A program made the translations under genes and the position numbers. Below are positions 1 to 22,930 of a DNA stretch of 23,506 bases, piece by piece (the stretch's first letter is position 1; every line of letters begins with the position of its first letter). Under the pieces are notes generated by a model that was not told where the DNA came from, ran no database searches, and saw only the letters and a program-made list of their open reading frames with translations. Source of the DNA: a virus (lineage: Duplodnaviria; Heunggongvirae; Uroviricota; Caudoviricetes); the IMG/VR virus record IMGVR_UViG_648276653_000011, positions 1 through 23,506 of that record; one strand, given 5' to 3'.

Positions 1-1966
1 GACGGAGCAGGAAGCTCACGCCCTTCACCACCTTCGGTGTGTCCCATCGCGCCAGCACCTGATATTCCCCGCTGTCTGCGGTGACTTCGGCGGTCAGATG
101 CTGCACTGCTGGCGGCGTGACACCATTCACCGTGCCGCTCTGGTCGCCGTCAAAGTGCGCCCCGTTATCCACGATGGCCTCTTTTTCCGGCACATGCTGC
201 ACGGCAGTGATGGCATACGTGCCGTCGTCGTTCTCACGGATACTCACGCAGCGGAACAGGCGCTGGCGCAGCGTCGGCAGCTTCAGCCCCCACACGCTGT
301 ATCCGGCAACGCCGTCAGGAACACGGCTCACTTTCACCTTCACGCCGTCGGTGACGGACTGAACCTCCACGCTGACCGGATTGCCACTTCCGTCAACCAG
401 GCTTATCAGCGTGGTACCGGAGGATGGCAGCGTGATTTCACGGTCGAGCGTCAGCGTCCGGGTCTGGCTGTTCACCGCCAGCACACGCCCGCCGGTGCTG
501 ATCCCCGCATAGTCATCATCACAGATTTCAATGACATCGCCCGGTACATGGCGAAGCCCTTCTGCGCCCACGCTGAAGTCCACGGTCTGCGTCTCCAGCA
601 GCTCCGTTTTAATCAGCCACAGCCCGGCGCGGTGTGCCTGCCCCCGGCTGGTACAGCCAAAGGCATCCATCTTCGTGACGTTACGACCGTAACGGACAAT
701 GGCCTGCGTATCCTCCACAAGCTCTGTCGCCGTCTCCCAGCCGTTATTCGGGTCAATCCAGTTCACCTCAACGGCATTATGACGGTCCTTCAGGGCGCTG
801 AAGCTGTAGCGGAACGGCGCGCCATCATCCGGCATCACCACATTACTGCGGTTATAGGTCCACACCTTATCCGATGGCCGGTCCTGCACGAACGTCAGCG
901 TCTGCCCGTTCCATACCGGCATACAGCGCATCGCCGAGCAGAAATCACTGAGCACATCCCACGCCTTGCGCTGCGTGGTCAGCCAGGCATTACAGGTGAT
1001 ACGCGGTTCCGTGCCACCAAAGCCATCCGGCACCGACTGGTCGCAATTCTGGCCGATGACATACAGCGCCCATTTATCCACATCCGCCGCACCAAGACGT
1101 TTCCCCATGCCGTAGCGCGGATGGGTCAGCATATCCCACAGACACCAGGCCATGTTATTGCTGTATGCCGGTTTTAACGTTCCGTCCCAGATACCGCTGT
1201 ATTGCCGCGTCTGCGGGTTATAGTTCGACGGCACCTGCAGAATGCGCCCGCGAAGATGATAATTACGGCTCACCTGCTGGCTGCCGAACTGCTCCGAGTC
1301 CACCTGCACGCCGACCAGTGCCGTGTTCGGGTAGCACTGTTTCACATCGATGATTTCGGTGTATGACGACCAGAGCGTTTTGTTCTGCAGCTGGTCTGTG
1401 GTGCTGTCCGGCGTCATCCTGCGCATCCGTATATTGAACGGGCGCGGCGGCAGGTTACCCACCACCACCGAGGCCAGATACTGCGAGGTGGTTTTGCCCT
1501 TAATGGTGATGTCTTTTTCCGTCACCCAGCCACCATTACGCTGTATCTGAACCAGCAGACGGACTTCCGACGGATTCCTGTCACCCTTTGAGGTGGTTTC
1601 CACCAGTGCCTGTACACCGAAGGTAAAGCGCAGACGGTCGATGTTTGCCGACGTAATGGTGCGGGTGATCGGCGTGTCATATTTCACTTCCGTACCCAGC
1701 ACCGTCTCGGAGCCGGAGGATTCAAATCCCTCCGGCGGTGACTGCTCCTGCTCACCTGCCCGGAACACCACCGTGACGCCGGATATATTGGTATTCCCCT
1801 CACTGTCCAGCACCGGCGTACTGTTCAGCAGCACGCTTTTTAATCCATCCACCGGACCTTCAACCGGCCCTTCGCTGATGGCATCAATCACACTCAGCAG
1901 CTGCGTGGATTTCAGGTTGTCCTTCGCTTCGCGCGGGGTATGCCCCTTACTGCTGCCTTTACCCAT
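1..1966 (-). CDS. J: Host specificity / central tail fibre protein J, N-terminal ~655 codons; 3' end lies outside the window
   Basis: Minus-strand frame from the ATG at 1966 translates as MGKGSSKGHTPREAKDNLKSTQLLSVIDAISEGP..., matching my recollection of the lambda J N-terminus; frame appeared open to the window edge on manual translation; GGAGC Shine-Dalgarno just upstream; follows I as in lambda. Not in the ORF track because no stop falls inside the window. Confidence 0.85.
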   Translation of the reverse strand, partial: MGKGSSKGHTPREAKDNLKSTQLLSVIDAISEGPVEGPVDGLKSVLLNSTPVLDSEGNTNISGVTVVFRAGEQEQSPPEGFESSGSETVLGTEVKYDTPITRTITSANIDRLRFTFGVQALVETTSKGDRNPSEVRLLVQIQRNGGWVTEKDITIKGKTTSQYLASVVVGNLPPRPFNIRMRRMTPDSTTDQLQNKTLWSSYTEIIDVKQCYPNTALVGVQVDSEQFGSQQVSRNYHLRGRILQVPSNYNPQTRQYSGIWDGTLKPAYSNNMAWCLWDMLTHPRYGMGKRLGAADVDKWALYVIGQNCDQSVPDGFGGTEPRITCNAWLTTQRKAWDVLSDFCSAMRCMPVWNGQTLTFVQDRPSDKVWTYNRSNVVMPDDGAPFRYSFSALKDRHNAVEVNWIDPNNGWETATELVEDTQAIVRYGRNVTKMDAFGCTSRGQAHRAGLWLIKTELLETQTVDFSVGAEGLRHVPGDVIEICDDDYAGISTGGRVLAVNSQTRTLTLDREITLPSSGTTLISLVDGSGNPVSVEVQSVTDGVKVKVSRVPDGVAGYSVWGLKLPTLRQRLFRCVSIRENDDGTYAITAVQHVPEKEAIVDNGAHFDGDQSGTVNGVTPPAVQHLTAEVTADSGEYQVLARWDTPKVVKGVSFLLR

Positions 1967-2026: not shown

Positions 2027-2674
2027 TCAGCGACCAATCACCACAACCTGACCACCATCACCTTCATCTGCTGTGCTGATCTCCTGAGATACCACACGTG
2101 ATCCCACGCGCATTTCACCGTACAGAACGGGCAGAACATTGCCCTGGGCAACCATATTATCCAGTGAAGAAAAATAGGTGTTCTGTTTGCCGTTATCTGT
2201 ACTGGCTGCCGTGGGCGTCCTGGCTTTCGGTGCCAGCATCTGCGCCACACCACCCAGGATCATACTGGCCCCTGCTGCATACAGACCCGATACAGCCGCG
2301 GCCCCCAGCCAGCCAACAGGGTTCCACCATGCCACCGCAATCAGCGCCGCACCCAGCACCGCCTGAAACACACCGCCACTTTTGGCACCCGCCAGACGCG
2401 GAACGACGTGGATCACGGCACCATTTGCCAGCGGTTCATTAAGACGGGCAGATAATTCATTTTCGCCTGCATCACGCCCGGAAATGCGCACCTGATACCA
2501 GCCCTCATTCAGTTTCTGGCGAAACGACGGAAGCTGTGTGGCCAGCGCCCGGATGGCTTCAGCCCCCGTTTTCACACGAAGGTCGATGCGGCGACCAAAT
2601 CGTTGTAAATCCCCGTAAAGGCAGATGCGTGCCATGCCCGGTGACGCCAGAGGGAGTGTGTGCGTCGCTGCCAT
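2027..2674 (-). CDS. I: Tail tip assembly protein I
   Basis: 215-aa ORF; MAATHTLPLASPGMARICLYGDLQRFGRRIDL... and C-terminal ...NGKQNTYFSSLDNMVAQGNVLPVLYGEMRVGSRVVSQEISTADEGDGGQVVVIGR match recalled lambda gpI; ATG at 2674; overlaps K 3' end as in lambda. Confidence 0.9.
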   Translation of the reverse strand: MAATHTLPLASPGMARICLYGDLQRFGRRIDLRVKTGAEAIRALATQLPSFRQKLNEGWYQVRISGRDAGENELSARLNEPLANGAVIHVVPRLAGAKSGGVFQAVLGAALIAVAWWNPVGWLGAAAVSGLYAAGASMILGGVAQMLAPKARTPTAASTDNGKQNTYFSSLDNMVAQGNVLPVLYGEMRVGSRVVSQEISTADEGDGGQVVVIGR

Positions 2675-3315
2675 TTGTCGGTATACCTCTCTCGTTTGCT
2701 CAGTTGTTCAGGAATATGGTGCAGCAGCTCGCCGTCACCACAGTAAATGGCGGCATGATTCGTCACCGATGAACCAAAACAGCACAGCAGCACATCGCCC
2801 GGCTGCGCCGCTGACAACGGCACCTGATACAGCCCTGTGGCCTCCAGATTATCCAGATAGAGATTCTGACCGTGACGCCACCAGTCATCCTCGCGATGAA
2901 AATCCGGCATCTCAATCCCCGCCAGATGGTAAGCATCCCGGAACAGCGTGTAACAGTCCGTCACCCCGTGCTCAAAGCGCCGCCCGGTAAGATGTGGCAC
3001 ACAGCGGAACTTGTGAATCGCCCCCCGGCAGACCAGCCACCACGGCAAATCACTCTGCACCTGCAGCCGCCTGTCGGCCTCACTCAGCCAGGGCAGACCA
3101 CCGGGGTGGCTGTGGACCAGCGCCACAATCTCACCCTGCATTTCTGCCTGCAGCCAGTCTTCCGGCGACATACGGAAATACGCCTCCGGCTCACCGGAAA
3201 TATTCACGCAGGGAAAATATCTTTCCCCCTCCGGCGCTCTCACCACGAAGCCGCACGACTCCGCTGGCGCACATCGCCGGGCGTGCGCCAGAATCGCTGA
3301 TTCTGTCTCTGTCAT
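2572..3315 (-). CDS. K: Tail tip assembly protein K (JAB/MPN metalloprotease-like plus NlpC/P60-like domains)
   Basis: Internal ATG at 3315 gives MTETESAILAHARRCAPAESCGF...; JAMM-like motif HSHPGGLPWLSEAD and NlpC/P60-like Cys context GVTDCYTLF visible; the track ORF 2572..3390 is an upstream in-frame extension that would overlap L. Confidence 0.85.
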   Translation of the reverse strand: MTETESAILAHARRCAPAESCGFVVRAPEGERYFPCVNISGEPEAYFRMSPEDWLQAEMQGEIVALVHSHPGGLPWLSEADRRLQVQSDLPWWLVCRGAIHKFRCVPHLTGRRFEHGVTDCYTLFRDAYHLAGIEMPDFHREDDWWRHGQNLYLDNLEATGLYQVPLSAAQPGDVLLCCFGSSVTNHAAIYCGDGELLHHIPEQLSKRERYTDKWQRRTHSLWRHRAWHASAFTGIYNDLVAASTFV

Positions 3316-3319
3316 GGGA

Positions 3320-4018
3320 TTACTGCGAAAGTTTGTTAATGGAAAGGAAGCCGCCAAAGTTGCCGACGTTATTGCGAAACTTACAGCCACTCAGGCATTT
3401 GCTGCATTTATCCTTCGTGATATCGGACGTCGGCTGGTCATATTCATCCGCGACAGCCGGACCGTGATAACCGCACTCATCACCGCGATAGGTCCAGGTG
3501 CAGGTATTAGCCAGCATGATACGTCCCGGAAAAACGGCACCATCCGTTTCCGTCGGTGTGGAGAGCACAAAGGAGGCACTGACCGCGCTCAGTTCGCTGC
3601 ACTGCTCGATGCGCCAGCGGCTGATCACCTCCTGCTCCGGATCGGCTTCACTGTTTCCGTTGACGAAGTTCACCGCATCCAGAAAACGGGCGTAAACCTT
3701 ACGCCTGACCACCGTTCCGCCGACCAGACTCTGCAGGTCTTCCGCCATACCGGTGACCATGCCGTGCAGGTTAGATACCTTAAGTGTGGGACGTGCGCTG
3801 CTGCCCTTACCGTTCATCTCAAAGCCGCTCCCCTGAATGGGATACTCCTGATACTGCCTCCCCTGCCAGGTAACCGGCTCACCTTTTTCGTTCTGCTCAT
3901 TACAGAAAAAATAACGTTCACCACCGACCTCTGTCAGATCGATTTCCCAGAGCACGACCAGCGCGGATTGCTCCGATTTAGTGCACTCATTGAGTGTTTC
4001 CTGCTGTATATCCTGCAT
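3320..4018 (-). CDS. L: Minor tail protein L
   Basis: 232-aa ORF MQDIQQETLNECTKSEQSALVVLWEIDLTEVGGERYFFCNEQNEKGEPVTWQGRQYQ... lambda gpL-like; ATG at 4018 overlaps the M stop (TGATG). Confidence 0.9.
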   Translation of the reverse strand: MQDIQQETLNECTKSEQSALVVLWEIDLTEVGGERYFFCNEQNEKGEPVTWQGRQYQEYPIQGSGFEMNGKGSSARPTLKVSNLHGMVTGMAEDLQSLVGGTVVRRKVYARFLDAVNFVNGNSEADPEQEVISRWRIEQCSELSAVSASFVLSTPTETDGAVFPGRIMLANTCTWTYRGDECGYHGPAVADEYDQPTSDITKDKCSKCLSGCKFRNNVGNFGGFLSINKLSQ

Positions 4019-10606: not shown

Positions 10607-11824
10607 TTATTTGCCAGTGAGCGCCTTGATGGCTGCCACATCTTCCAGCACACAGTCAAAACGATGGAAAGCCAGAAATGCCACCTGATCAAACTCAGCA
10701 TAACGCTCAACCAGACGTTTCAGTTCCATATAAGTAACGCGGCGAATGATAAAGCGGTTGAAATCCCCCAGGAAAATGAATTTTTTTCCAGTACCAATCC
10801 CGTCAATAGCCTGATCAATAACATAAGGGATCCCCAGCACAGTAGCCGGCGTACCGCCTGCAATATCCGGCAGCCATAACGGGCGTTTCTGTCCATCCTC
10901 CATCTCTTCAATAGTCTGCAATGTGGCATCATTGAATACCCAGCGGTATTTCGGCCCACCACGATATGCCGGATCAATGGCATGTTTCAGGGCATTCATT
11001 TCTTTCCAGGTGAAAGCGGCAGAGGCTGCAGTCTGGATGGTTCCCGTCACCGACGCTGCCAGCCCTTTTGGCTGTAACGGTGATCCCGTTCCGGTCCCCT
11101 GAACCAGATATTTTGCCTCTCCACGACCAATACGCTGGGCAATACGGTTTGCCAGATAAGATTCAATATCCACCCCACTGTCCTGGAGCAGCTCATTGGA
11201 CACACGAATTATTTTTGATGACAGCTTTTTAGCCCCCAGAATAGCGGTCCCGAACGTCACATCCTGTTCCGTTGCGGCTGTATTTTCCGCCAGCAGTTCG
11301 CCCTCTTCAGTCGTGCCATCAGACGTTGACCAGGTGATATCCTGCCCGGTTGATGTGGTCAGAAGTTGCGCCACACTGGCAATCCCGCCATAAGCCTTCA
11401 TGGTGTCAATGATTTTGTTACGCATCTGCGTGGGCACCGTATATCCGCCCTGAGAATCCGTTGTTACACTCTGAGCCCGCAGTTCACGCATCAGATTACG
11501 CTCTTCAGCATTCAGTTCTGCAAATCCGGCACGCAGAAAACGGTTAAATGCCGCAGCACGCTTCTCTTCCACCGCCTTTTTCCCGTTCTCCGCCTCATTA
11601 TTCTGGCGCTCTTCCGGCCCGGACTCATCCACATATGCCTGATCCTGACGGCGCAACTCTTCTTCACGGGCGATTTGCTCATCCAGCGCATCCAGCTCAG
11701 CTTTCGCCCTGTTCCACTCTGCCCGTTGCTCATCAGTCCATGCGTTATCACCAATTTTTTCATGCAGTGCACGCATATCCTTTGCAATGGTGTTTCGTTT
11801 TTGCTTCATCTCATGAAGTTTCAT
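10607..11824 (-). CDS. Major capsid protein, HK97 family, with N-terminal delta (scaffold-like) domain
   Basis: 405-aa ORF; N-terminal ~100 aa Glu/Arg/Ala-rich coiled-coil-like (MKLHEMKQKRNTIAKDMRALHEKIGDN...ELDALDEQIAREEELRRQD...) followed by a capsid-like body; sits between the prohead protease and head-tail genes. Confidence 0.85.
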   Translation of the reverse strand: MKLHEMKQKRNTIAKDMRALHEKIGDNAWTDEQRAEWNRAKAELDALDEQIAREEELRRQDQAYVDESGPEERQNNEAENGKKAVEEKRAAAFNRFLRAGFAELNAEERNLMRELRAQSVTTDSQGGYTVPTQMRNKIIDTMKAYGGIASVAQLLTTSTGQDITWSTSDGTTEEGELLAENTAATEQDVTFGTAILGAKKLSSKIIRVSNELLQDSGVDIESYLANRIAQRIGRGEAKYLVQGTGTGSPLQPKGLAASVTGTIQTAASAAFTWKEMNALKHAIDPAYRGGPKYRWVFNDATLQTIEEMEDGQKRPLWLPDIAGGTPATVLGIPYVIDQAIDGIGTGKKFIFLGDFNRFIIRRVTYMELKRLVERYAEFDQVAFLAFHRFDCVLEDVAAIKALTGK

Positions 11825-11838
11825 CGTCAGTAGTATCC

Positions 11839-12438
11839 TTATGCATTAAGAAGGGTCAAAAGGCGCTCACGCGCCATTCGTTCATTAACAGCTTTCTTCA
11901 GCGCACCACTCGCCCGCGCTTCCTGCCAGGCTTTCATTGAGCGGACACCGGAGTCTGCGTCCTGATAGGCCGGATATGTCACCGGGCTGACGTCATACAG
12001 ACGAGAAATGCGCGTGATTTCCCGGATAACAATCCCCTCGTCGTCTTCATACCAGCTCTCTCCGTCACGGGCGACACGAAACGCGAACGAGGACTGGTTA
12101 ATGTCACCACGCAACATTGGAGACAGCACCAGGTCACAAATAGTCGGAGTACCCGGTGCAACAATGTCATAACGTAAACCGCGTTCATCCACCGACAATG
12201 ACAATGTGCCGGCAGAACTTCGTCCGAGAATGAAATTAGGATCATGATTAAACAAGCCACGTACATCATCATTCAGTACATCATCAAAAGCCCCCGGCTT
12301 GATGATTTCACGAAATCCCCACAGAGGTTCTGAACGACTGTTAAATACCGAGCCATACCCCAGAATGTGGGTCGGGGCATTATCATATTGTTCCGCCCGC
12401 ACCTCCCCGCTGTAACAGCGCGTTTCACGGTCATTCAT
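11839..12438 (-). CDS. Prohead protease (HK97 gp4 family)
   Basis: 199-aa ORF MNDRETRCYSGEVRAEQYDNAPTHILGYGSVFNSRSEPLWGFREIIKPGAFDDVL...; between portal and capsid; 8-nt overlap with the portal gene. Confidence 0.8.
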   Translation of the reverse strand: MNDRETRCYSGEVRAEQYDNAPTHILGYGSVFNSRSEPLWGFREIIKPGAFDDVLNDDVRGLFNHDPNFILGRSSAGTLSLSVDERGLRYDIVAPGTPTICDLVLSPMLRGDINQSSFAFRVARDGESWYEDDEGIVIREITRISRLYDVSPVTYPAYQDADSGVRSMKAWQEARASGALKKAVNERMARERLLTLLNA

Positions 12439-13657
12439 CGTTCTTTTCCTCTTTGCCTTTCGTATCTTTAAAGTTATTCAACGGATTTGCTGCATTTACG
12501 CTGACCAGCATTTCATCCAGACCGTCAACCGGGTTCATATCCTCAAATGCCCTGGCTTCATTCCGACTCATCCAGCCATCTGTAATGGCAAAGTGATAGA
12601 ACTGCGCACGCTCCTGTGGGGTCCCACGGAGCAACCCCGTGAGGTTGAAACGAACGTAATACCCGGCAGCCCGTTCTGTACGGGTAAACAGGCGACGGTT
12701 AAGCTCCTGCTCCCAGTTCGCAACCCAGGGCATCATCGTGTAGCGAACAAACTGAATCGCCTGCTGCGTAATATTCGAAAATGTGGCTTTTTCCAGGTCA
12801 TTAATCATGTGCGCCGGGACATTAAAAATCCCTGCAATCATCGACCTGTTCAGCTTGGTCATATCAATGATCTGAGCATCCACCGGAGAAACTGTCAGAG
12901 CGCGGTAATCCAGTTGCGCAGGCAACAGCATGGTTTTATTTTCCTGGCTGCGAAGCGCTGTCACCGCCCGCTGCCACATATTTTTAAGCCTGCCCCAGCT
13001 CTGTTCGTTCAGTTCATTTTTCACAGAAATAATACCGGCAGGACGGGCATTACCGTTAAAAAAGGCGCTGGTATACTGCTGGCCACTCATTCCCATACCA
13101 ATGGTTTCAGCATGCTGCATGATCGGGCTCAGTCCCATTTTCTGATTGTTTCCCAGCGCCCTGATATGGATCATGTCGTCCGGACTTACCGCAAATGCAC
13201 CCTCTTCGTTATACACCCCGTAAGTATGACGCCCACCGGTGTTAAGTAACGTGGTTTCCCATGGCATACAGCATTCAAGGCTGGTAACCTCGCCACGACG
13301 ATTACGTTTTACCCACGTATAACCATTGCCCCACCCCAGCACATGACGCTGCTTCAGTTCCCGCCACTTATAGCTGGTCTGCCAGGCATTAGGTTCATCA
13401 TGAACGAGCCAGAACAACGGATGATCGCGTGCCGGCTGAACATGCTCATTCGTTTTTCGCATCACATGCAGGGGCATCTGAGCCACACTGGATGAAATAA
13501 CATAAATACAGGCATAGACAGCAGCCAGCTTCATGGATGTTTCCGGACTGACATACACATCCCGGGCAAAAATATTATCCGTCTCAGCGGCCTCTCCGGT
13601 TACCGGAACCGAGGGATTTTCCAGAGGCTCACTGCGAAACAGAGCATCAAGAAGCAT
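12431..13657 (-). CDS. Portal protein (HK97 family)
   Basis: 408-aa ORF MLLDALFRSEPLENPSVPVTGEA...; size and position downstream of the large terminase; GAGGAGA RBS upstream. Confidence 0.85.
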   Translation of the reverse strand: MLLDALFRSEPLENPSVPVTGEAAETDNIFARDVYVSPETSMKLAAVYACIYVISSSVAQMPLHVMRKTNEHVQPARDHPLFWLVHDEPNAWQTSYKWRELKQRHVLGWGNGYTWVKRNRRGEVTSLECCMPWETTLLNTGGRHTYGVYNEEGAFAVSPDDMIHIRALGNNQKMGLSPIMQHAETIGMGMSGQQYTSAFFNGNARPAGIISVKNELNEQSWGRLKNMWQRAVTALRSQENKTMLLPAQLDYRALTVSPVDAQIIDMTKLNRSMIAGIFNVPAHMINDLEKATFSNITQQAIQFVRYTMMPWVANWEQELNRRLFTRTERAAGYYVRFNLTGLLRGTPQERAQFYHFAITDGWMSRNEARAFEDMNPVDGLDEMLVSVNAANPLNNFKDTKGKEEKNDE

Positions 13658-13787
13658 GTTTTCTCCTCATGGACACCACCAGTGCATAAAGCAGCAACAA
13701 ACAGCCAGACAGCATCAGAGACGCTGGCAGACCTGCATACAGATAAACGCCAGCAGTGAGCAGACCGAAACCGATCAGCCCAGTCAT
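13647..13787 (-). CDS. Small hydrophobic ORF (46 aa, predicted two transmembrane segments) between terminase and portal; hypothetical
   Basis: Manual minus-strand translation gives MTGLIGFGLLTAGVYLYAGLPASLMLSGCLLLLYALVVSMRRKHAS; its 3' end contains the portal RBS and its TGA lies 8 nt past the portal ATG; below the track's size cut-off. Confidence 0.3.
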   Translation of the reverse strand: MTGLIGFGLLTAGVYLYAGLPASLMLSGCLLLLYALVVSMRRKHAS

Positions 13788-13804
13788 ATCAGTAATAAGC
13801 TGTT

Positions 13805-15562
13805 TCACAGAATTAACAGGTCCTCATCAGGATCAAGCGTGGACAGAAAGTCATTCACGCCCCCGCCATTTACCAGAAAGCGGCTCATGGCTGTAAAAAG
13901 CGCAACAGGGCCGTCGATTTTTGCTTCCGGCGTGGATTTATTCGGGAAGATGTTGTCGTTTTTGTCCGGTTTTACAGTAACGTTAGACATCATCCAGTTC
14001 ATGACCGGATGATTGCTGTGATGGAAACGCCCGGCATAAACCAGTGATTCCGTTTCCTTCATGGCCTCTGACAGATTGCGGACCGTCTGCGGAACCTCCA
14101 CCAGCGGTATCCCTTCTTCAGCCAGTGCCAGGCTGAACTGCATTGCGCTCCACGGGTCAAATCCCAGTTCCCTGAGGTTTTCACCGCCAATCCATTCCAG
14201 TAAGTCACTTTTTATCTGAGCATGATCGATAACATCACCATCCGTCAGGATGAGCTTATCCATCTCCGCCCACTTCCGGTAAAGTTCTGCCTGCTGCCGC
14301 GAGCATCGTTCCAGCCGTCCTTCCGGAAGCCAGAATTTAAAATCAGCATGAACATGTCCGTTATCGGTTCGCCAGAGTTTTGCCGCCGCACAGATATCAA
14401 TCTTATGAGCAAGGTCGACGCCGACCCACATGGGATATGTTTTTAGCTCATGTTGTGGAGCAATGTATTCGCACTTCTCCCACTTAATCATATCCATCCA
14501 GGCAGATTCGGCAGTGACCCACACATTCATGTGTTTGGTAAAAAAATTCACCCGCGCAGAGACCTGCTCCTTCGCTTTTTTCGCCAGACGACGCAGATCA
14601 TCCCAGCGTTTACAGATGCCCAGGCCAGGATTCGCTTTCTGCCAGACCGTTTCATCAAACGGATCATCTCCCTCATCGAGCGTGTAAATGATCGCAAAGT
14701 AAGAGTCGTCTTTTACAGCGCCCTCCACGTCGCTGTTATAGCCTCGCAATACCTTGATGGCGTAATCACGCTGCTCGTAACAAATCCCTTCCTTGTTAAA
14801 GCCAGCCGTGGTGATACCAAATAACAGGGACTGCAGACGGGCACCGGTTGCTGTTTCCAGAACGTCCCACACGTCGCGGGTTTTATGTGCATGCAGCTCA
14901 TCAATAATGGCACAGTGGATGTTCAGACCGTCCAGATTGTTTGCATCCGAGGAAAGCGGTTCAAATTTTGATGCGCTCTGCTCCTGGTAAATCGCCAGCT
15001 TGTTGAAGTCAAACAACCGCCCGAGTGTCGACCGGGCTTTTCTGACCATATTTTTGGCGTCTTCAAACACGATTCTGGCCTGATCACGCGTGGTTGCGGC
15101 TGAATACACCTCAGCACCACCTTCACCATCTGCCCCCGTCATATACAGACCGATACCCGATGACAGGGTTGATTTTGCGTTTTTACGGGCGACTTCGTTG
15201 TACGCCGTCCGGAACCGGCGCACCATCACCGGGCGTCCACTGCCATCGCTGCGCATGACAATTTCCCCGGTCTCTTCATTCACCAGCGGAATGACAAAAC
15301 CAAAAATATTAATGAGGATAAATACATGCCAGTCCATCAGTTCAATGGGCTGGCCTGCCAGCGCCCCTTTCACATGAGGCACAAATTTGTAGAAATTCAG
15401 GATGTGCTGCGCACGGGGTTCACTGAAATAAATCCCCCGCTCTTCGCCGTACTTCAGATCATCAAGAAAACGCTGGCAGGCTAGGCGGACAAATTCGCCA
15501 GCAACAATTTCTCCTGCAACAACACGTTCGGCGTAGCGGATCCCGTCAGCCACTTTTGCCAT
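13805..15562 (-). CDS. Terminase large subunit
   Basis: 585-aa ORF MAKVADGIRYAERVVAGEIVAGEFVRLACQRFLDDLKYGEERGIYF...; size and position between TerS and portal; start overlaps the TerS stop. Confidence 0.85.
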   Translation of the reverse strand: MAKVADGIRYAERVVAGEIVAGEFVRLACQRFLDDLKYGEERGIYFSEPRAQHILNFYKFVPHVKGALAGQPIELMDWHVFILINIFGFVIPLVNEETGEIVMRSDGSGRPVMVRRFRTAYNEVARKNAKSTLSSGIGLYMTGADGEGGAEVYSAATTRDQARIVFEDAKNMVRKARSTLGRLFDFNKLAIYQEQSASKFEPLSSDANNLDGLNIHCAIIDELHAHKTRDVWDVLETATGARLQSLLFGITTAGFNKEGICYEQRDYAIKVLRGYNSDVEGAVKDDSYFAIIYTLDEGDDPFDETVWQKANPGLGICKRWDDLRRLAKKAKEQVSARVNFFTKHMNVWVTAESAWMDMIKWEKCEYIAPQHELKTYPMWVGVDLAHKIDICAAAKLWRTDNGHVHADFKFWLPEGRLERCSRQQAELYRKWAEMDKLILTDGDVIDHAQIKSDLLEWIGGENLRELGFDPWSAMQFSLALAEEGIPLVEVPQTVRNLSEAMKETESLVYAGRFHHSNHPVMNWMMSNVTVKPDKNDNIFPNKSTPEAKIDGPVALFTAMSRFLVNGGGVNDFLSTLDPDEDLLIL

Positions 15563-16044
15563 CAGTCTCTCGCTTTTAAAAGCTCCGCCAGCGGATCAAC
15601 ATCATCCGGTCCGGCGGTATTTACTTTCGCCCGGCTTGCCGGTGACATACCAAATTCTGCAAGCATCGCCCGGATCCGCTTCCAGGCATCCGCTTTCATC
15701 GCAGCAGCCGGGTGTGCCTTAATCAGCACATCACCGTTCTGCGTTTCCGTGCGGTAGGTATACCCCTCAACATCGAGTGTTTCGCAGTGATGCCGGTATT
15801 CGGTGTAGGCTTCCACCAGTAACTCGAGTGCACGCGCATCAAGCTGAGAAATGATCCCTTCCGCATTCAGTTCTTCCGCCATTCGCCTGAACCAGTACTT
15901 CCCCTGCGACCCTAAATGTTGCGGAATTTTAGGGAGACATTTTTCATCCTTTTTAGCGGTTTTTTTGGAGTCTTTAACTGGCCGCTTTGAGGGGTTACCT
16001 CGTATCAAATGCAGGCGTGGCGGGGTTTTCGGGGGTCCAGACAT
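15562..16044 (-). CDS. Terminase small subunit, P27 family
   Basis: 160-aa ORF MSGPPKTPPRLHLIRGNPSKRPVKDS... resembles the conserved P27-family N-terminus (..PKP..L...GNPGKRP..); immediately upstream of TerL. Confidence 0.75.
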   Translation of the reverse strand: MSGPPKTPPRLHLIRGNPSKRPVKDSKKTAKKDEKCLPKIPQHLGSQGKYWFRRMAEELNAEGIISQLDARALELLVEAYTEYRHHCETLDVEGYTYRTETQNGDVLIKAHPAAAMKADAWKRIRAMLAEFGMSPASRAKVNTAGPDDVDPLAELLKARD

Positions 16045-16191: not shown

Positions 16192-16542
16192 TCAATTGAT
16201 GCGTTCGCGCGCTGTTTTTGCTTTATGACAGGGCCAGCACAGACTCTGCAGGTTACTGTCTGCATCCGTGCCACCATGAGCTTTCGGAATGATGTGGTCC
16301 ACAGTTCTGGCTTCAACGGCTCTCCCATTGCGCAGGCAGTTCTGACACAGATGATTATCACGCTTCAGTATGCGCGCACGTATGGCATCCCATTTCGAGC
16401 CATAGCCACGCTGGTGGCGGCTCAGTCCGCGTTGATGCTGTACCCATCCTTCGCCACGATGTTTATCGCAGTAACCAGAACTGTCTGTGGTTGTACCTGC
16501 ACATCCACGCTTACGGCAGGCGCGTGGGATTAGTGCTGGCAT
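16192..16542 (-). CDS. HNH endonuclease (terminase-associated)
   Basis: 116-aa ORF with HNH motif ...DHIIPKAHGGTDADSNLQSLCWPCH... and upstream Cys pair CQNC; AAGGG RBS; adjacent to TerS. Confidence 0.85.
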   Translation of the reverse strand: MPALIPRACRKRGCAGTTTDSSGYCDKHRGEGWVQHQRGLSRHQRGYGSKWDAIRARILKRDNHLCQNCLRNGRAVEARTVDHIIPKAHGGTDADSNLQSLCWPCHKAKTARERIN

Positions 16543-16680: not shown

Positions 16681-17220
16681 ATGGATATTAAAGATAAAAT
16701 CAATACCATTTTGTTATGTGACATTGCCATCCACCTAGGTATCGAAACTGATATTGATCCACAGCTTGTTAAATATGCTGTGTCATCTGGTAATGATTGG
16801 GTTATCAAGGCCGAATATTCACATTTGGATGTTGACGAACCAAGTAAAGAAGATCGTGATTTTGTTACTGCTGTCTTGAATATGTATCGCGGACTTTCCA
16901 ATGCTTTCAGGAAACTTAGTGATGACGAGCAAAAAGAATTAGTCCGTGACCATCATCTAAAAATACATGATGGGGCAATTCAGCTCCCAGGTTTCGACGG
17001 TAATAATGAATGCGATTACTTCAGTATCATTGAGGCATATCAGAAAATTGATCGCTTCCCCGAACAGAAACAGCCCATTGCCAATACTCATTCACGTACA
17101 GAACATCTCTATAACGCAATGCTTGATGAGTTTAAGAAAATTGACGCTGTAAATCGAAGCTGGGATTTATCGAAGGAAGAACTGGCATCCATTCTTTCCA
17201 CAGCTCCACGCAGTTTCTAA
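16681..17220 (+). CDS. Plus-strand moron gene, 179 aa; tentatively YfbU/UPF0304-like; function unknown
   Basis: ORF MDIKDKINTILLCDIAIHLGIETDIDPQLVKYAVSSGNDWVIKAEYSHLDVDEPSKEDRDF...; visibly AT-rich versus flanking late genes; AGAGGG RBS 8 nt upstream; strand opposite to the late operon; hairpin immediately downstream. Family call is from memory only. Confidence 0.6.
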   Translation: MDIKDKINTILLCDIAIHLGIETDIDPQLVKYAVSSGNDWVIKAEYSHLDVDEPSKEDRDFVTAVLNMYRGLSNAFRKLSDDEQKELVRDHHLKIHDGAIQLPGFDGNNECDYFSIIEAYQKIDRFPEQKQPIANTHSRTEHLYNAMLDEFKKIDAVNRSWDLSKEELASILSTAPRSF

Positions 17221-20141: not shown

Positions 20142-20441
20142 TCTACATTCCTTAACTTGAGCCTTTCGGCATAAATGGTTTGCATAACAGAAACGACTTC
20201 GTACTTAATTGGAGAGACTCAAAGAAGGAATAAGTGAATAACACCTGAAATGAGAACTGCTTTAGTAAACTACTTCGTATATCGTCTGTTCTTCAAACCG
20301 ACGCAATCATTAACGCATAGTTGAACATATGAAGCAATGTTTATTTTAGACATCCAGCCATCTTCAACCCCATCAAAAAACTATAGCTTTCTTCAGGAAC
20401 GTGTGTATAGTGCGCCAAGTTATCAGTATTAAGGAATTTTT

Positions 20442-20654
20442 TTGTCCCGTAAAATGACAGGAATTGTCAAAACCTTTGACGGCAAAAGCGGCAAGGGTCT
20501 TATCACCCCATCCGATGGTCGTATCGATGTCCAGCTTCATGTTTCAGCGCTCAATCTCCGCGATGCAGAAGAAATTACCACCGGATTACGCGTGGAATTT
20601 TGCCGGATAAATGGTCTGCGTGGCCCTTCAGCTGCCAATGTTTACCTTTCATGA
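20442..20654 (+). CDS. cspF: Cold shock-like protein CspF/CspH family
   Basis: 70-aa [73 protein letters not shown]; apparent TTG start with AAGGAA 5 nt upstream; divergent from cspB. Confidence 0.85.
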
Positions 20655-20708
20655 GCTATATTAAAGCTTTAATTTCAGGCCCCATCGGATCACACATGGA
20701 GAGTTTTT

Positions 20709-20798
20709 ATGAATAACCCCGTCTGTCTTGATGACTGGATGATTGGCTTTAAAAGCTTATGCTGTACTTTGGCCGTAATAGCTCTGCTAATAATATAA
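20709..20798 (+). CDS. Candidate 29-aa hydrophobic peptide ORF downstream of cspF (speculative)
   Basis: GGAGAG-TTTTT-ATG context; manual translation [29 protein letters not shown] with hydrophobic C-terminal half; below the track's size cut-off. Confidence 0.2.
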
Positions 20799-20946
20799 TA
20801 AGCAGACTCATTGTGTTTAGGGACATTGTACTGGAAGAAAACATTTTAAACATCAGGCAAATAACCAAGTCACCAGCTAAATAATAAGTTAACAGACATG
20901 AGTCCCGGGATGAGATTCAACATTACCATTGCCCCATTTAAAGCAC

Positions 20947-20980
20947 AAAACCCGCTCATCAGCGGGTTTTCTACTTTTTC
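20947..20980 (-). terminator. Candidate tR' late terminator (10-bp stem AAAACCCGCT/AGCGGGTTTT), potentially bidirectional
   Basis: Inverted repeat read directly, followed by TTTTGTGCTTT on the minus strand and CTACTTTTTC on the plus strand; ~60 nt downstream of the putative pR' start. Confidence 0.5.
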
Positions 20981-21009
20981 TTAACGTCGGGTATACAAAG
21001 CCCATCGTT

Positions 21010-21050
21010 GAAAAAATTTTATCCATATTTTTTGAAAAATGCAAACATCA
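21010..21050 (-). promoter_or_regulatory. Candidate late promoter pR' (-35 TTGCAT, 17-bp spacer, -10 TAAAAT) just downstream of Q; expected Q-utilisation region
   Basis: Minus strand reads TTGCAT-ttttcaaaaaatatgga-TAAAAT (plus coordinates 21039..21044 and 21016..21021); position after Q matches the lambdoid pR'/qut arrangement. Confidence 0.45.
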
Positions 21051-21075
21051 TGTCGCCATCTTCAGCAAAAATCAT

Positions 21076-21828
21076 TTATCTCGTCACCTTCCTCAATTGC
21101 GCTTCCGCGTATGCTTCTTCCTGCCAGCACTTTGTTACCAGTTTACCAATGACGTCCGCATACCCCTTATACCACTGATAATCGGTCAGGTCTGGTACCA
21201 GCTTCTGGACATGACGTCGTGCCAGCGTGGTCGGTAAACGACTAAACCGGTTTCCATTACAACGCCCACAAATCTTATATACCGGTACGCCATGAAACCG
21301 GGTTCTTTTTTCATCCAGAACAATCCCTTTACCCTTACACCCTCTGCACGCTGTGCTGACTTCGCCCTTACCATGGCAATGCTGACATAGTTCCTTCACC
21401 CATTCTTCCTTGATTACAGATTCCCCGCGTCTGTAGTGTTTCACCACTTCGCGCAATACATTATAAAATCCCGTACCTGAACAATGCTCACAGCGAGCCT
21501 TACTTGCCGCAGACCTGGAGTAATCAGCAAAGGCAAAACTCACGAGGTAAGGAATAATCTGTAACCGGATTTCTTCACTCAATTTGTTCAATGTCGGGTT
21601 ATCCAGTGCCATCGCGTAATTTAGCAGGCCTTCAATCGCAAACTGAGGGTCCTGAACACCAACTTTTGCCAGAAATAAGGCCAACCCAAGTGGTGCTTTC
21701 GACTGCACCATCCCCTGCGCTGCCATTACATCCGTAATTGTTAAACAACCGGTGCCTGTCGCTGGAGCGTCATCGCTCAATTTTGGAGATTTTGGGGAGT
21801 AATATTTTGGTAAGGCTTCAAGGTTCAT
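21076..21828 (-). CDS. Late-gene antitermination protein Q
   Basis: ATG at 21828 with GGAG 7 nt upstream gives MNLEALPKYYSPKSPKLSDDAPATGTGCLTITDVMAAQGMVQSKAPLG...; Cys-rich C-terminal cluster (CEHCSGTG...CQHCHGKG...CRGCKGKG...CGRCNG) suggesting Zn binding; position before the late promoter and lysis genes. Confidence 0.8.
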   Translation of the reverse strand: MNLEALPKYYSPKSPKLSDDAPATGTGCLTITDVMAAQGMVQSKAPLGLALFLAKVGVQDPQFAIEGLLNYAMALDNPTLNKLSEEIRLQIIPYLVSFAFADYSRSAASKARCEHCSGTGFYNVLREVVKHYRRGESVIKEEWVKELCQHCHGKGEVSTACRGCKGKGIVLDEKRTRFHGVPVYKICGRCNGNRFSRLPTTLARRHVQKLVPDLTDYQWYKGYADVIGKLVTKCWQEEAYAEAQLRKVTR

Positions 21829-21841
21829 GCTCGTTCTCCAC

Positions 21842-22930
21842 TTACGCCAGTACGCCAATTGCCAGCGCGCGATCGATAAAACGAAATATCAGCTCCAGTT
21901 GGGAGCCATACTTCTCTTCAAATGCCACTGTATCCGTATGCAGCTCGTTGTGATGCTTTCTGCACAAAGGCAACACAAAGAGATCATGTGCTTTTGTTCC
22001 CATTCCGCCCTGCCCGTGACCAATCAGATGATGCGGATCGTCGGCTGGCATACCGCAGCAAGCACACGGCTGTGTCTTAACCCAACGTGTGTATTTCTCC
22101 TTAACCCAGCGGCGACGTTTAGGCAGCTTCATGAAAGATTCCGGAGACTCTGGATCAACGGTGATGCTTACCACCGTCTTTTCCTGTGGTGGTTTTTGTT
22201 GCTGGTAGGCGTAAGGCAACGGTGCAAGATTTTTTGTGCGTTGTTTCAATATGCTGGTGGCGGTCTGCTCTCCCGGTACGATGTCGCTTTCGCGGTACAC
22301 CGAGCAGATTTTTTCCGCTGGTAATCCCAGCGAACGACGCGATACAGCCTCAGGTAGTGCATCCACCACCTGATTGCAGACCGCCCACCAGGATAATTCA
22401 GCCAAAGATAATTCCCGCTCCTGCGTACCGCTTATTGCGTGACGGATGACGTCAATCACCCATGCTGTCAGATTTTGTTGAGCAAGCAGATCCAGTGATT
22501 CCGATGTCTGGTCACGCAGTTGGTTGTCGCAGTGCCAACACAACACCATTGCGCCGGTACCATAACGGTGAATGACTGTTTCAGAGTGATGGTAATCGCC
22601 ATTAGGCCACTGGCAGGATGTAACATGACGTAATAGCCAGTCAGACAATGCGCCAACGCCGCCAGCAGCACGAATCACCCGTTCGTTACTAAAAAACGGC
22701 AGCAATGTTTTGTCTTCCACCAGCGGCTGGCGAACGGCAGGAACGACTCCGGATGGCAGATTACGCATGCTTTTTGGTTCCGGTTCCACCAGCACTCGAG
22801 GATTATGAAATATCTGTATGGATTCACGGCCCGGCTTAAGGACCACCAGCCCAAGCTCAGGCACCAGAACAGGTCTAAGTAATACCCGCACGTTACCTCC
22901 AGATCCGTTGCTGGAAAGTGCGGGACGCAC
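21842..22930 (-). CDS. DUF968-like protein (YdfU-like; start uncertain)
   Basis: C-terminal ...CACCGMPADDPHHLIGHGQGGMGTKAHDLFVLPLCRKHHNELH... recalled as the DUF968 signature; sits immediately upstream of Q as in Qin-type prophages; annotated start is GTG at 22930, overlapping the upstream 92-aa ORF; internal ATG at ~22768 is an alternative. Confidence 0.6.
   Translation of the reverse strand: MRPALSSNGSGGNVRVLLRPVLVPELGLVVLKPGRESIQIFHNPRVLVEPEPKSMRNLPSGVVPAVRQPLVEDKTLLPFFSNERVIRAAGGVGALSDWLLRHVTSCQWPNGDYHHSETVIHRYGTGAMVLCWHCDNQLRDQTSESLDLLAQQNLTAWVIDVIRHAISGTQERELSLAELSWWAVCNQVVDALPEAVSRRSLGLPAEKICSVYRESDIVPGEQTATSILKQRTKNLAPLPYAYQQQKPPQEKTVVSITVDPESPESFMKLPKRRRWVKEKYTRWVKTQPCACCGMPADDPHHLIGHGQGGMGTKAHDLFVLPLCRKHHNELHTDTVAFEEKYGSQLELIFRFIDRALAIGVLA

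Follow-up and report, generated by a model that had tools for sequence, protein, structure and literature searches.

A small gene for a predicted membrane hairpin between the large terminase and portal genes of an HK97-type packaging module

The window analyzed here is the complete stretch of 23,506 nucleotides (nt) of IMG/VR virus record IMGVR_UViG_648276653_000011 (Caudoviricetes). Its minus strand carries a packaging and head module, and within that module a very short gene lies between the gene for the large terminase subunit (TerL) and the gene for an HK97-type portal protein. We asked what this gene encodes, how widely it occurs and what its product might do. The data leave little doubt that the gene is real and translated and that its product is a membrane micro-protein of the PHROG 7105 family, a family that was already catalogued and is uncharacterized. 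For its function we can offer only a tentative explanation, an accessory role at the inner membrane in portal or prohead initiation, and several competing explanations are weighed below.

A conserved small gene between TerL and portal

A single minus-strand open reading frame (ORF) fills the 147 nt between the TerL stop codon and the portal ATG (13658..13804). An earlier note on this DNA had described a minus-strand ORF in a spacer of this length, and the peptide it quoted matches the translation letter for letter. It had also placed the stop codon 8 nt past the portal ATG and the portal Shine-Dalgarno (SD) sequence in the last codons, both correctly: the TGA (13649-13647) begins 8 nt after the A (13657) of the portal ATG, and the SD, AGGAG (13667-13663), lies within codons 47-49. 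The length of 46 codons given in the same note was wrong. The quoted peptide begins at codon 8, an internal Met (ATG at 13787) that is replaced by V, A, L or I in relatives. Because this residue varies and the overlapping start, ATGA or GTGA, is conserved at its position, we assign the gene 53 codons, opening at GTG 13808-13806. RefSeq calls the same 53-codon start.

The description of the ORF as unannotated also needs correction. Its product is identical to RefSeq WP_000811487.1, a "hypothetical protein" called by PGAP, with a coding sequence (CDS) at exactly the same bounds. The gene is annotated in the GenBank records of the induced E. coli phages vB_EcoS-689R5, Evi and PhiR49_2, and likewise in many other phage records; annotation is missing in some records only. 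For example, Klebsiella phage 1 LV-2017 carries the small gene at 2501..2662 and SfV (NC_003444) carries an intact 53-codon homologue at 2289..2450, both without annotation. In SfV, the portal CDS (2392..3666) is annotated from GTG 2392, which is 48 nt upstream of the start used in relatives (GTG 2440, VLLDALFRS...). Since the conserved start in relatives lies 48 nt downstream, the annotated SfV portal start is probably wrong.

The profile of PHROG 7105, a family labelled as of unknown function, matches the window protein along its whole length (E = 9.4e-20; residues 1-52 of the protein align to all 52 profile positions), and it matches all 52 of 52 diverse relatives. Matches to PHROG 502 ("membrane protein"; YmfR and Sb3), with E = 1.3e-6, and to PHROG 4810 are weaker, the former much weaker. 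By sequence, the small gene is therefore a member of PHROG 7105 and a remote relative, not a member, of PHROG 502. No family in Pfam, NCBIfam or PADLOC matched the window protein (PADLOC: none at E <= 1), and Pfam searches with the 52 relatives gave only scattered sub-threshold matches to unrelated membrane families. We found neither a Pfam model nor literature for PHROG 7105 itself. Thus, the gene was annotated and its family known, although without any characterization.

Conservation of the reading frame was among the checks proposed in the earlier note, and the frame is clearly kept. Among the window and related loci it is intact in 86 of 87 sequences, the one exception being cut by a contig end, and it stays intact down to ~30% amino-acid identity. 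Phages of Morganella, Shigella, Edwardsiella, Salmonella and Klebsiella carry homologues of 52-53 amino acids with the same geometry (46-62% amino-acid identity). We compared 29 distinct 162-nt alleles over interior codons 3-45, a range that avoids the overlaps with the neighboring genes. The ratio of non-synonymous to synonymous differences per site (pN/pS) is 0.45 in the frame of the ORF; the two remaining frames give 0.93 and 1.66. Of the 13 nucleotide positions that vary in the E. coli clade, 11 are synonymous, and the ratio of non-synonymous to synonymous substitution rates (dN/dS) is 0.2-0.6 against divergent relatives. This substitution pattern fits purifying selection and, together with the intact frame, points to a genuine protein-coding gene.

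Constraint is looser on the small gene (pN 0.23-0.34) than on the portal gene (pN 0.08-0.18). This is typical of membrane mini-proteins, whose hydrophobic residues replace one another freely. It should be added that pS is lower in the small gene (0.42-0.68) than in TerL and portal of the same loci (0.67-0.83). With only ~37 synonymous sites this is a weak signal; overlapping signals, a codon bias from the Leu/Gly-rich composition, or more recent exchange could each cause it. We also considered a plus-strand ORF of 159 codons (13533..14012) that runs antisense to the end of TerL, the small gene and the start of portal. It was set aside as very likely spurious, as the substitution pattern fits the minus-strand frame.

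A search of 1.84 billion representative proteins with the family profile (E <= 1e-3, clusters at 50% identity) returned 212 clusters, nearly all of 45-60 amino acids and matched over their full length. Across 52 diverse members, down to 17-30% identity, G20 and G35 never vary, and conservation of D7, G13 and G26 is 90% or higher.

The earlier note had seen two hydrophobic stretches followed by a basic tail, and the hydropathy agrees: the best 17-residue Kyte-Doolittle mean is 2.34, the grand average of hydropathy (GRAVY) of the whole protein is 0.99, and the protein ends in RRKHAS. The second helix is the more strongly hydrophobic, with a summed Hessa-scale free energy of -0.6 to -2.3 kcal/mol. 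D7 stands directly upstream of helix 1 and G26 at the turn between the helices. AlphaFold2, run with the family alignment, models helices at residues 2-25 and 27-52 (mean predicted local distance difference test score, pLDDT, 84). The claim of a membrane peptide is thus supported at the level of prediction, and we describe the product as a predicted 53-residue, two-helix membrane hairpin with a tight Gly turn. Because the C-terminal tail carries a charge of +3 to +4, the positive-inside rule would place both ends in the cytoplasm, with a periplasmic turn of 3-4 residues around G26. The seven-residue spacing of G13 and G20 would place both on one face of helix 1. Together with G35 on helix 2, they suggest tight helix packing or oligomerization.

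Operon context and linkage to the portal gene

The small gene sits in a minus-strand series that runs HNH endonuclease, P27-family small terminase (TerS), TerL, small gene, portal, protease, capsid (Table 1). The same setting recurs in distant members of the family. Six look-ups of members at ~30-45% identity returned nine places, and all nine have TerS (Terminase_4), TerL, the small gene, portal (PF04860), an S78 protease and an HK97 capsid gene.

Table 1. Features of the packaging module and of the small gene (positions in the window)
Feature	Positions	Strand	Remarks
Small gene	13647..13808	minus	53 codons, GTG start, TGA stop; predicted two-helix membrane micro-protein MKQLITDMTGLIGFGLLTAGVYLYAGLPASLMLSGCLLLLYALVVSMRRKHAS
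GTGA overlap	13805..13808	minus	small-gene GTG (13808-13806) and TerL stop TGA (13807-13805) have two bases in common
Helix 1 (predicted), residues 8-25	13734..13787	minus	Gly/Ala/Thr-rich, marginally hydrophobic; conserved G13 and G20 (heptad spacing), Y22-L23
Helix 2 (predicted), residues 29-47	13668..13724	minus	strongly hydrophobic; carries invariant G35
Basic C-terminal tail RRKHAS	13650..13667	minus	codons also carry the portal Shine-Dalgarno; overlap the first 8 nt of the portal gene
TerL (large terminase subunit gene)	13805..15562	minus	Pfam TerL_ATPase and TerL_nuclease domains
Last 15 TerL codons DFLSTLDPDEDLLIL	13808..13852	minus	tail conserved in both TerL lineages; upstream edge of the co-inherited block
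HK97-type portal gene	12431..13657	minus	PF04860 (Phage_portal); ATG at 13657-13655
HNH endonuclease gene	16192..16542	minus	
Small terminase gene, P27 family	15562..16044	minus	
Prohead protease gene	11839..12438	minus	
Major capsid gene	10607..11824	minus	

The overlap geometry with both neighbors is conserved. Among 27 distinct loci with a callable TerL end, the gap between TerL and the small gene is -4 in 26. Of the nine distant places, eight have a start with a 4-nt overlap to the upstream gene, and in the ninth (L090) the start lies 3 nt after the TerL stop. In all relatives the stop codon falls 1-17 nt inside the portal gene. The minus strand around the small gene shows no site resembling a promoter or a terminator, and the GC content of the gene (0.49-0.50) equals that of the flanks. 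Lacking a promoter, a terminator or a GC shift of its own, the gene is not a classical moron, and unlike one it overlaps the neighboring genes with both its start and its stop. We conclude that it is an integral cistron of the late packaging/head operon.

Comparison of relatives revealed no conserved SD upstream of the small-gene start. For this reason the gene is most likely translated by ribosomes that reinitiate after TerL, with GTGA as the putative termination-reinitiation site. The earlier note had suggested that the small gene and portal are translationally coupled. The overlap geometry is what coupling to both neighbors would predict, so this suggestion stands in part. However, the portal gene has its own, strong SD, and the ribosome-binding site there is masked by no conserved RNA structure (folding z-score +0.88, consensus energy -4.5 kcal/mol). 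Coupling into portal is therefore plausible but not obligatory.

Comparison of loci with different terminases reveals a mosaic. One type of small gene and portal (at least 75% identical) is paired with two TerL lineages that are only ~36% identical. Loci that differ in TerL type (L080-L083, L002 and L076) become 93-100% identical ~45 nt before the small-gene start, so that a block running from the last 15 TerL codons (DFLSxLDPDEDLLIL) through the small gene to the end of portal is inherited as a unit, with the TerL tail marking the recombination junction. That the tail travels with portal is as expected if it acts as the portal-docking peptide of TerL. The small gene is genetically linked to portal.

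Relatives with a named source come from Gamma- and Betaproteobacteria. The named cluster members are from Klebsiella, Pragia, Aliidiomarina and Alcaligenes, and another member is encoded by a Ralstonia phage. In Pseudomonas phage PARCL1pr the member is annotated with 78 amino acids (863..1099 of locus L103), of which 30 form a basic, helical-looking N-terminal extension before the hairpin; either the start was called too early or this is a true variant that has a cytoplasmic domain. The 701-nt junction region of the window matches 928 of 5426 complete E. coli genomes (17%).

A second set of proteins occupies the same position. Salmonella phage ST64B encodes Sb3, a "membrane protein" of 60 amino acids and a member of PHROG 502 (E = 2e-28), between TerL and a portal that is 29% identical to that of the window. 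Its E. coli counterpart is ymfR of the e14 prophage, which lies between terminase and portal remnants, and the ymfR-type junction region matches 1610 of the 5426 E. coli genomes (30%). Profile comparison with hhalign relates the family to Sb3 (87% probability, 22% identity) and, with 96% probability, to a 67-amino-acid protein at the same position in Vibrio phage K266. The earlier note had found a membrane peptide in the packaging module unexpected. With PHROG 7105 catalogued, PHROG 502 at the same position and both junction types frequent in E. coli, membrane hairpins are common at the TerL-portal junction and the surprise was misplaced.

The gene is not part of every such module. In HK97, as the earlier note had stated, there is no gene at this position, and TerL and portal abut at 2056. 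Nothing of the kind was found at the TerL-portal junction of Aeromonas AsXd-1, Pseudomonas BR52a, Rhodobacter RcapNL, Caulobacter TMCBR4, Moraxella Mcat30, Bradyrhizobium ppBeUSDA76-1 or Streptococcus Javan630 either. Xanthomonas MK21 (366..1040) and Lactococcus sk1 (2400..2684, HNH) have an endonuclease gene there instead. A small membrane ORF with DUF1056 from lactococcal 936-type phages was also considered as a candidate for this junction; it was dropped, as sk1 has the HNH gene there and no family member matches DUF1056. ORFs 3-5 of SPP1, which lie between TerL and portal, are dispensable and regarded as morons (PMC6316719), and gene insertions at the same junction are described for actinophages (PMC7302621). 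To judge from the endonuclease genes, the TerL-portal junction has evidently taken up small accessory genes repeatedly. As HK97 and other related phages lack it, the small gene is accessory and does not belong to the universal HK97-type machinery.

The surroundings of the module were compared with a 99.9%-identical prophage. RefSeq annotates a complete lysis cassette in this prophage (class II holin, lysozyme and Rz-like lysis protein), several kb upstream and beyond HNH and TerS, and adaptor and head-closure genes downstream of the capsid gene. The window has a plus-strand ORF of 179 codons (16681..17220) that separates the lysis region from the HNH and terminase genes. Its position and length match those of the 'YfbU family protein' of the near-identical RefSeq prophage (12881..13420 of locus L005), and it is a moron-like insertion in the late region. 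The same locus, from the E. coli NS-NP030 prophage and otherwise 99.9% identical, has an IS3 element in an HK97-gp10-like gene (20232..22478), followed by unrelated DNA. The NS-NP030 copy is therefore defective; the small gene is still intact there.

Possible functions of the small protein

We searched the literature by accession, PHROG number, YmfR and Sb3 and found only gene lists and no functional study. In one of these lists, mRNA of the e14 relative ymfR rises ~23-fold with other e14 genes under SOS (PMC10012262), which fits expression in the lytic cycle and not in lysogeny.

Our favored explanation, of low confidence and drawn by analogy with T4, is that the small protein is a late-expressed, accessory inner-membrane partner of the portal or of the prohead-initiation step. 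In T4, the inner-membrane assembly of the portal gp20 depends on gp40, a phage membrane chaperone (PMC9958956). By this model, ribosomes terminating on TerL would reinitiate on the small gene late in infection, and the product would form a hairpin in the inner membrane, its N- and C-termini facing the cytoplasm. Through the glycines at i and i+7 its helices could pack tightly or oligomerize, and the hairpin would tether or nucleate portal assembly at the membrane, much as gp40 does for gp20. On this model the product would be neither a lysis protein nor a lysogenic-conversion protein.

Several observations weigh against this explanation. The junction at which loci recombine lies 45 nt inside TerL, so that the small gene falls within the block from TerL tail to portal; if the TerL tail must match the portal, anything between them would be carried passively, and the linkage to portal may be hitch-hiking. 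HK97, AsXd-1, BR52a, RcapNL, TMCBR4, Mcat30 and others build the same type of head without the small gene. It must therefore be dispensable for assembly of HK97-fold heads in general, and we know of no membrane step in HK97-type assembly. We found no experimental support of any kind for the family, and no characterized protein similar to it in sequence or fold in Pfam, NCBIfam, PADLOC, the Protein Data Bank (PDB) or Foldseek searches. PDB sequences searched with the family profile gave no match, and Foldseek comparison of the AlphaFold2 model to the PDB gave only meaningless matches (E > 6), a helical hairpin being too generic a query for structure searches of this kind.

A broader version of the idea is more doubtful still. 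PHROG 7105, PHROG 502 (YmfR) and their relatives could be one ancient, portal-linked superfamily of hairpins that forms a glycine-zipper ring in the inner membrane, on which the portal dodecamer, or else the packaging motor, would be nucleated or tethered. Capsid initiation would then be membrane-associated, as in T4, in many HK97-type temperate phages of Proteobacteria, and the component would have been overlooked because it is tiny and annotated as hypothetical.

Two alternatives give the membrane hairpin another role, and we consider both unlikely. The predicted architecture resembles that of a class II holin or pinholin, with two transmembrane helices, a weakly hydrophobic Gly/Ala/Thr helix 1 and a basic cytoplasmic tail, and a late membrane effector of lysis that tunes membrane potential or lysis timing, like a holin or antiholin, would be built in this way. 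Two of 52 family members even match Phage_holin_3_6 below threshold (E = 0.003), but no holin family reaches threshold, no endolysin gene adjoins, the complete lysis cassette of the 99.9%-identical prophage lies elsewhere, and the strict portal-side position would be left unexplained. A protective role in the infected or lysogenic cell, through superinfection exclusion or against a membrane-bound host defense, would account for the patchy, accessory distribution among related phages. Phages do place small membrane exclusion genes within structural modules (HK97 gp15, T5 Llp, Cor), and the category given to PHROG 502 is 'moron, auxiliary metabolic gene and host takeover'. Without a promoter, terminator or GC shift of its own, however, the small gene is unlikely to be expressed from a repressed prophage. 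In addition, ymfR behaves as an induced gene, PADLOC gives no match, and no role of the portal in DNA entry is known on which such a protein could act as a block.

The remaining two explanations are harder still to reconcile with the data. That the ORF is a mere translated spacer, relaying ribosomes from TerL to portal and making a functionless peptide, seems very improbable. The overlaps with both neighbors, the portal SD in the last codons, the synonymous divergence somewhat below that of the flanking genes and the like geometry of Lambda A-W-B, with its 4-nt overlaps, would all suit a relay. A relay alone would not keep D7, G13, G20, G26 and G35, the length and the two-helix pattern across ~30% identity and differing overlap geometries, nor would it produce the frame-specific synonymous excess. 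Moreover, HK97 couples TerL to portal directly with no spacer, and the portal ribosome-binding site is unmasked by structure. Least credible is that the product is packaged near the portal as a minor virion or ejection protein and inserts into the recipient membrane at DNA entry. A gene beside portal in the head module and a hydrophobic hairpin able to enter a membrane are compatible with such a role. But the 53 residues are almost all hydrophobic and leave no soluble domain to bind the capsid, the PDB profile search found no related chain among solved structures, and no proteomic report was found.

How much is at stake depends on which explanation holds. If the hairpin ties the portal or the motor to the membrane, HK97-type head assembly would no longer be purely cytoplasmic, against the textbook view, while a lysis or exclusion accessory would be ordinary. 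What the present analysis adds is the fixed TerL-portal position across phages and prophages of Gamma- and Betaproteobacteria, the signature of purifying selection and the link to ymfR. The small gene is a conserved piece of one of the best-studied virus assembly modules that has no assigned role, and it is tractable by standard phage genetics.

Comparison with known systems

Lambda gpW is a head-tail adaptor of 68 amino acids. Like the small gene, W lies between the genes for TerL (A) and portal (B) with 4-nt ATGA overlaps. The earlier note had named W as a non-membrane counterpart, and rightly so: gpW is hydrophilic and soluble (GRAVY -0.49, compared to +0.99 for the small protein) and shares no sequence similarity with it. 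No gpW-like or other Pfam family matched the window protein.

Class II holins and pinholins, such as S21, resemble the small protein in predicted form, with two transmembrane helices, a weakly hydrophobic Gly/Ala-rich helix 1 and a basic or charged C-terminus. They differ in that the small protein is ~15 residues shorter, is encoded outside the lysis cassette with TerL and portal as neighbors, and matches no holin family.

T4 gp40, a membrane protein of the phage with a part in assembling the portal at the inner membrane, corresponds to the favored model by analogy. It is larger than the small-gene product, and the likeness is put forward as a hypothesis. T4 gene 40 is not known to be adjacent to gene 20.

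YmfR and Sb3 are remote relatives. They are two-helix hydrophobic proteins of 60 residues encoded between TerL and an HK97-type portal, and they share the glycine spacing. They belong to a separate PHROG at ~22% identity, lack the conserved N-terminal MK..D motif and are paired with a portal that is only 29% identical. PHROG 7105, the family of the small gene itself, is the same on every point.

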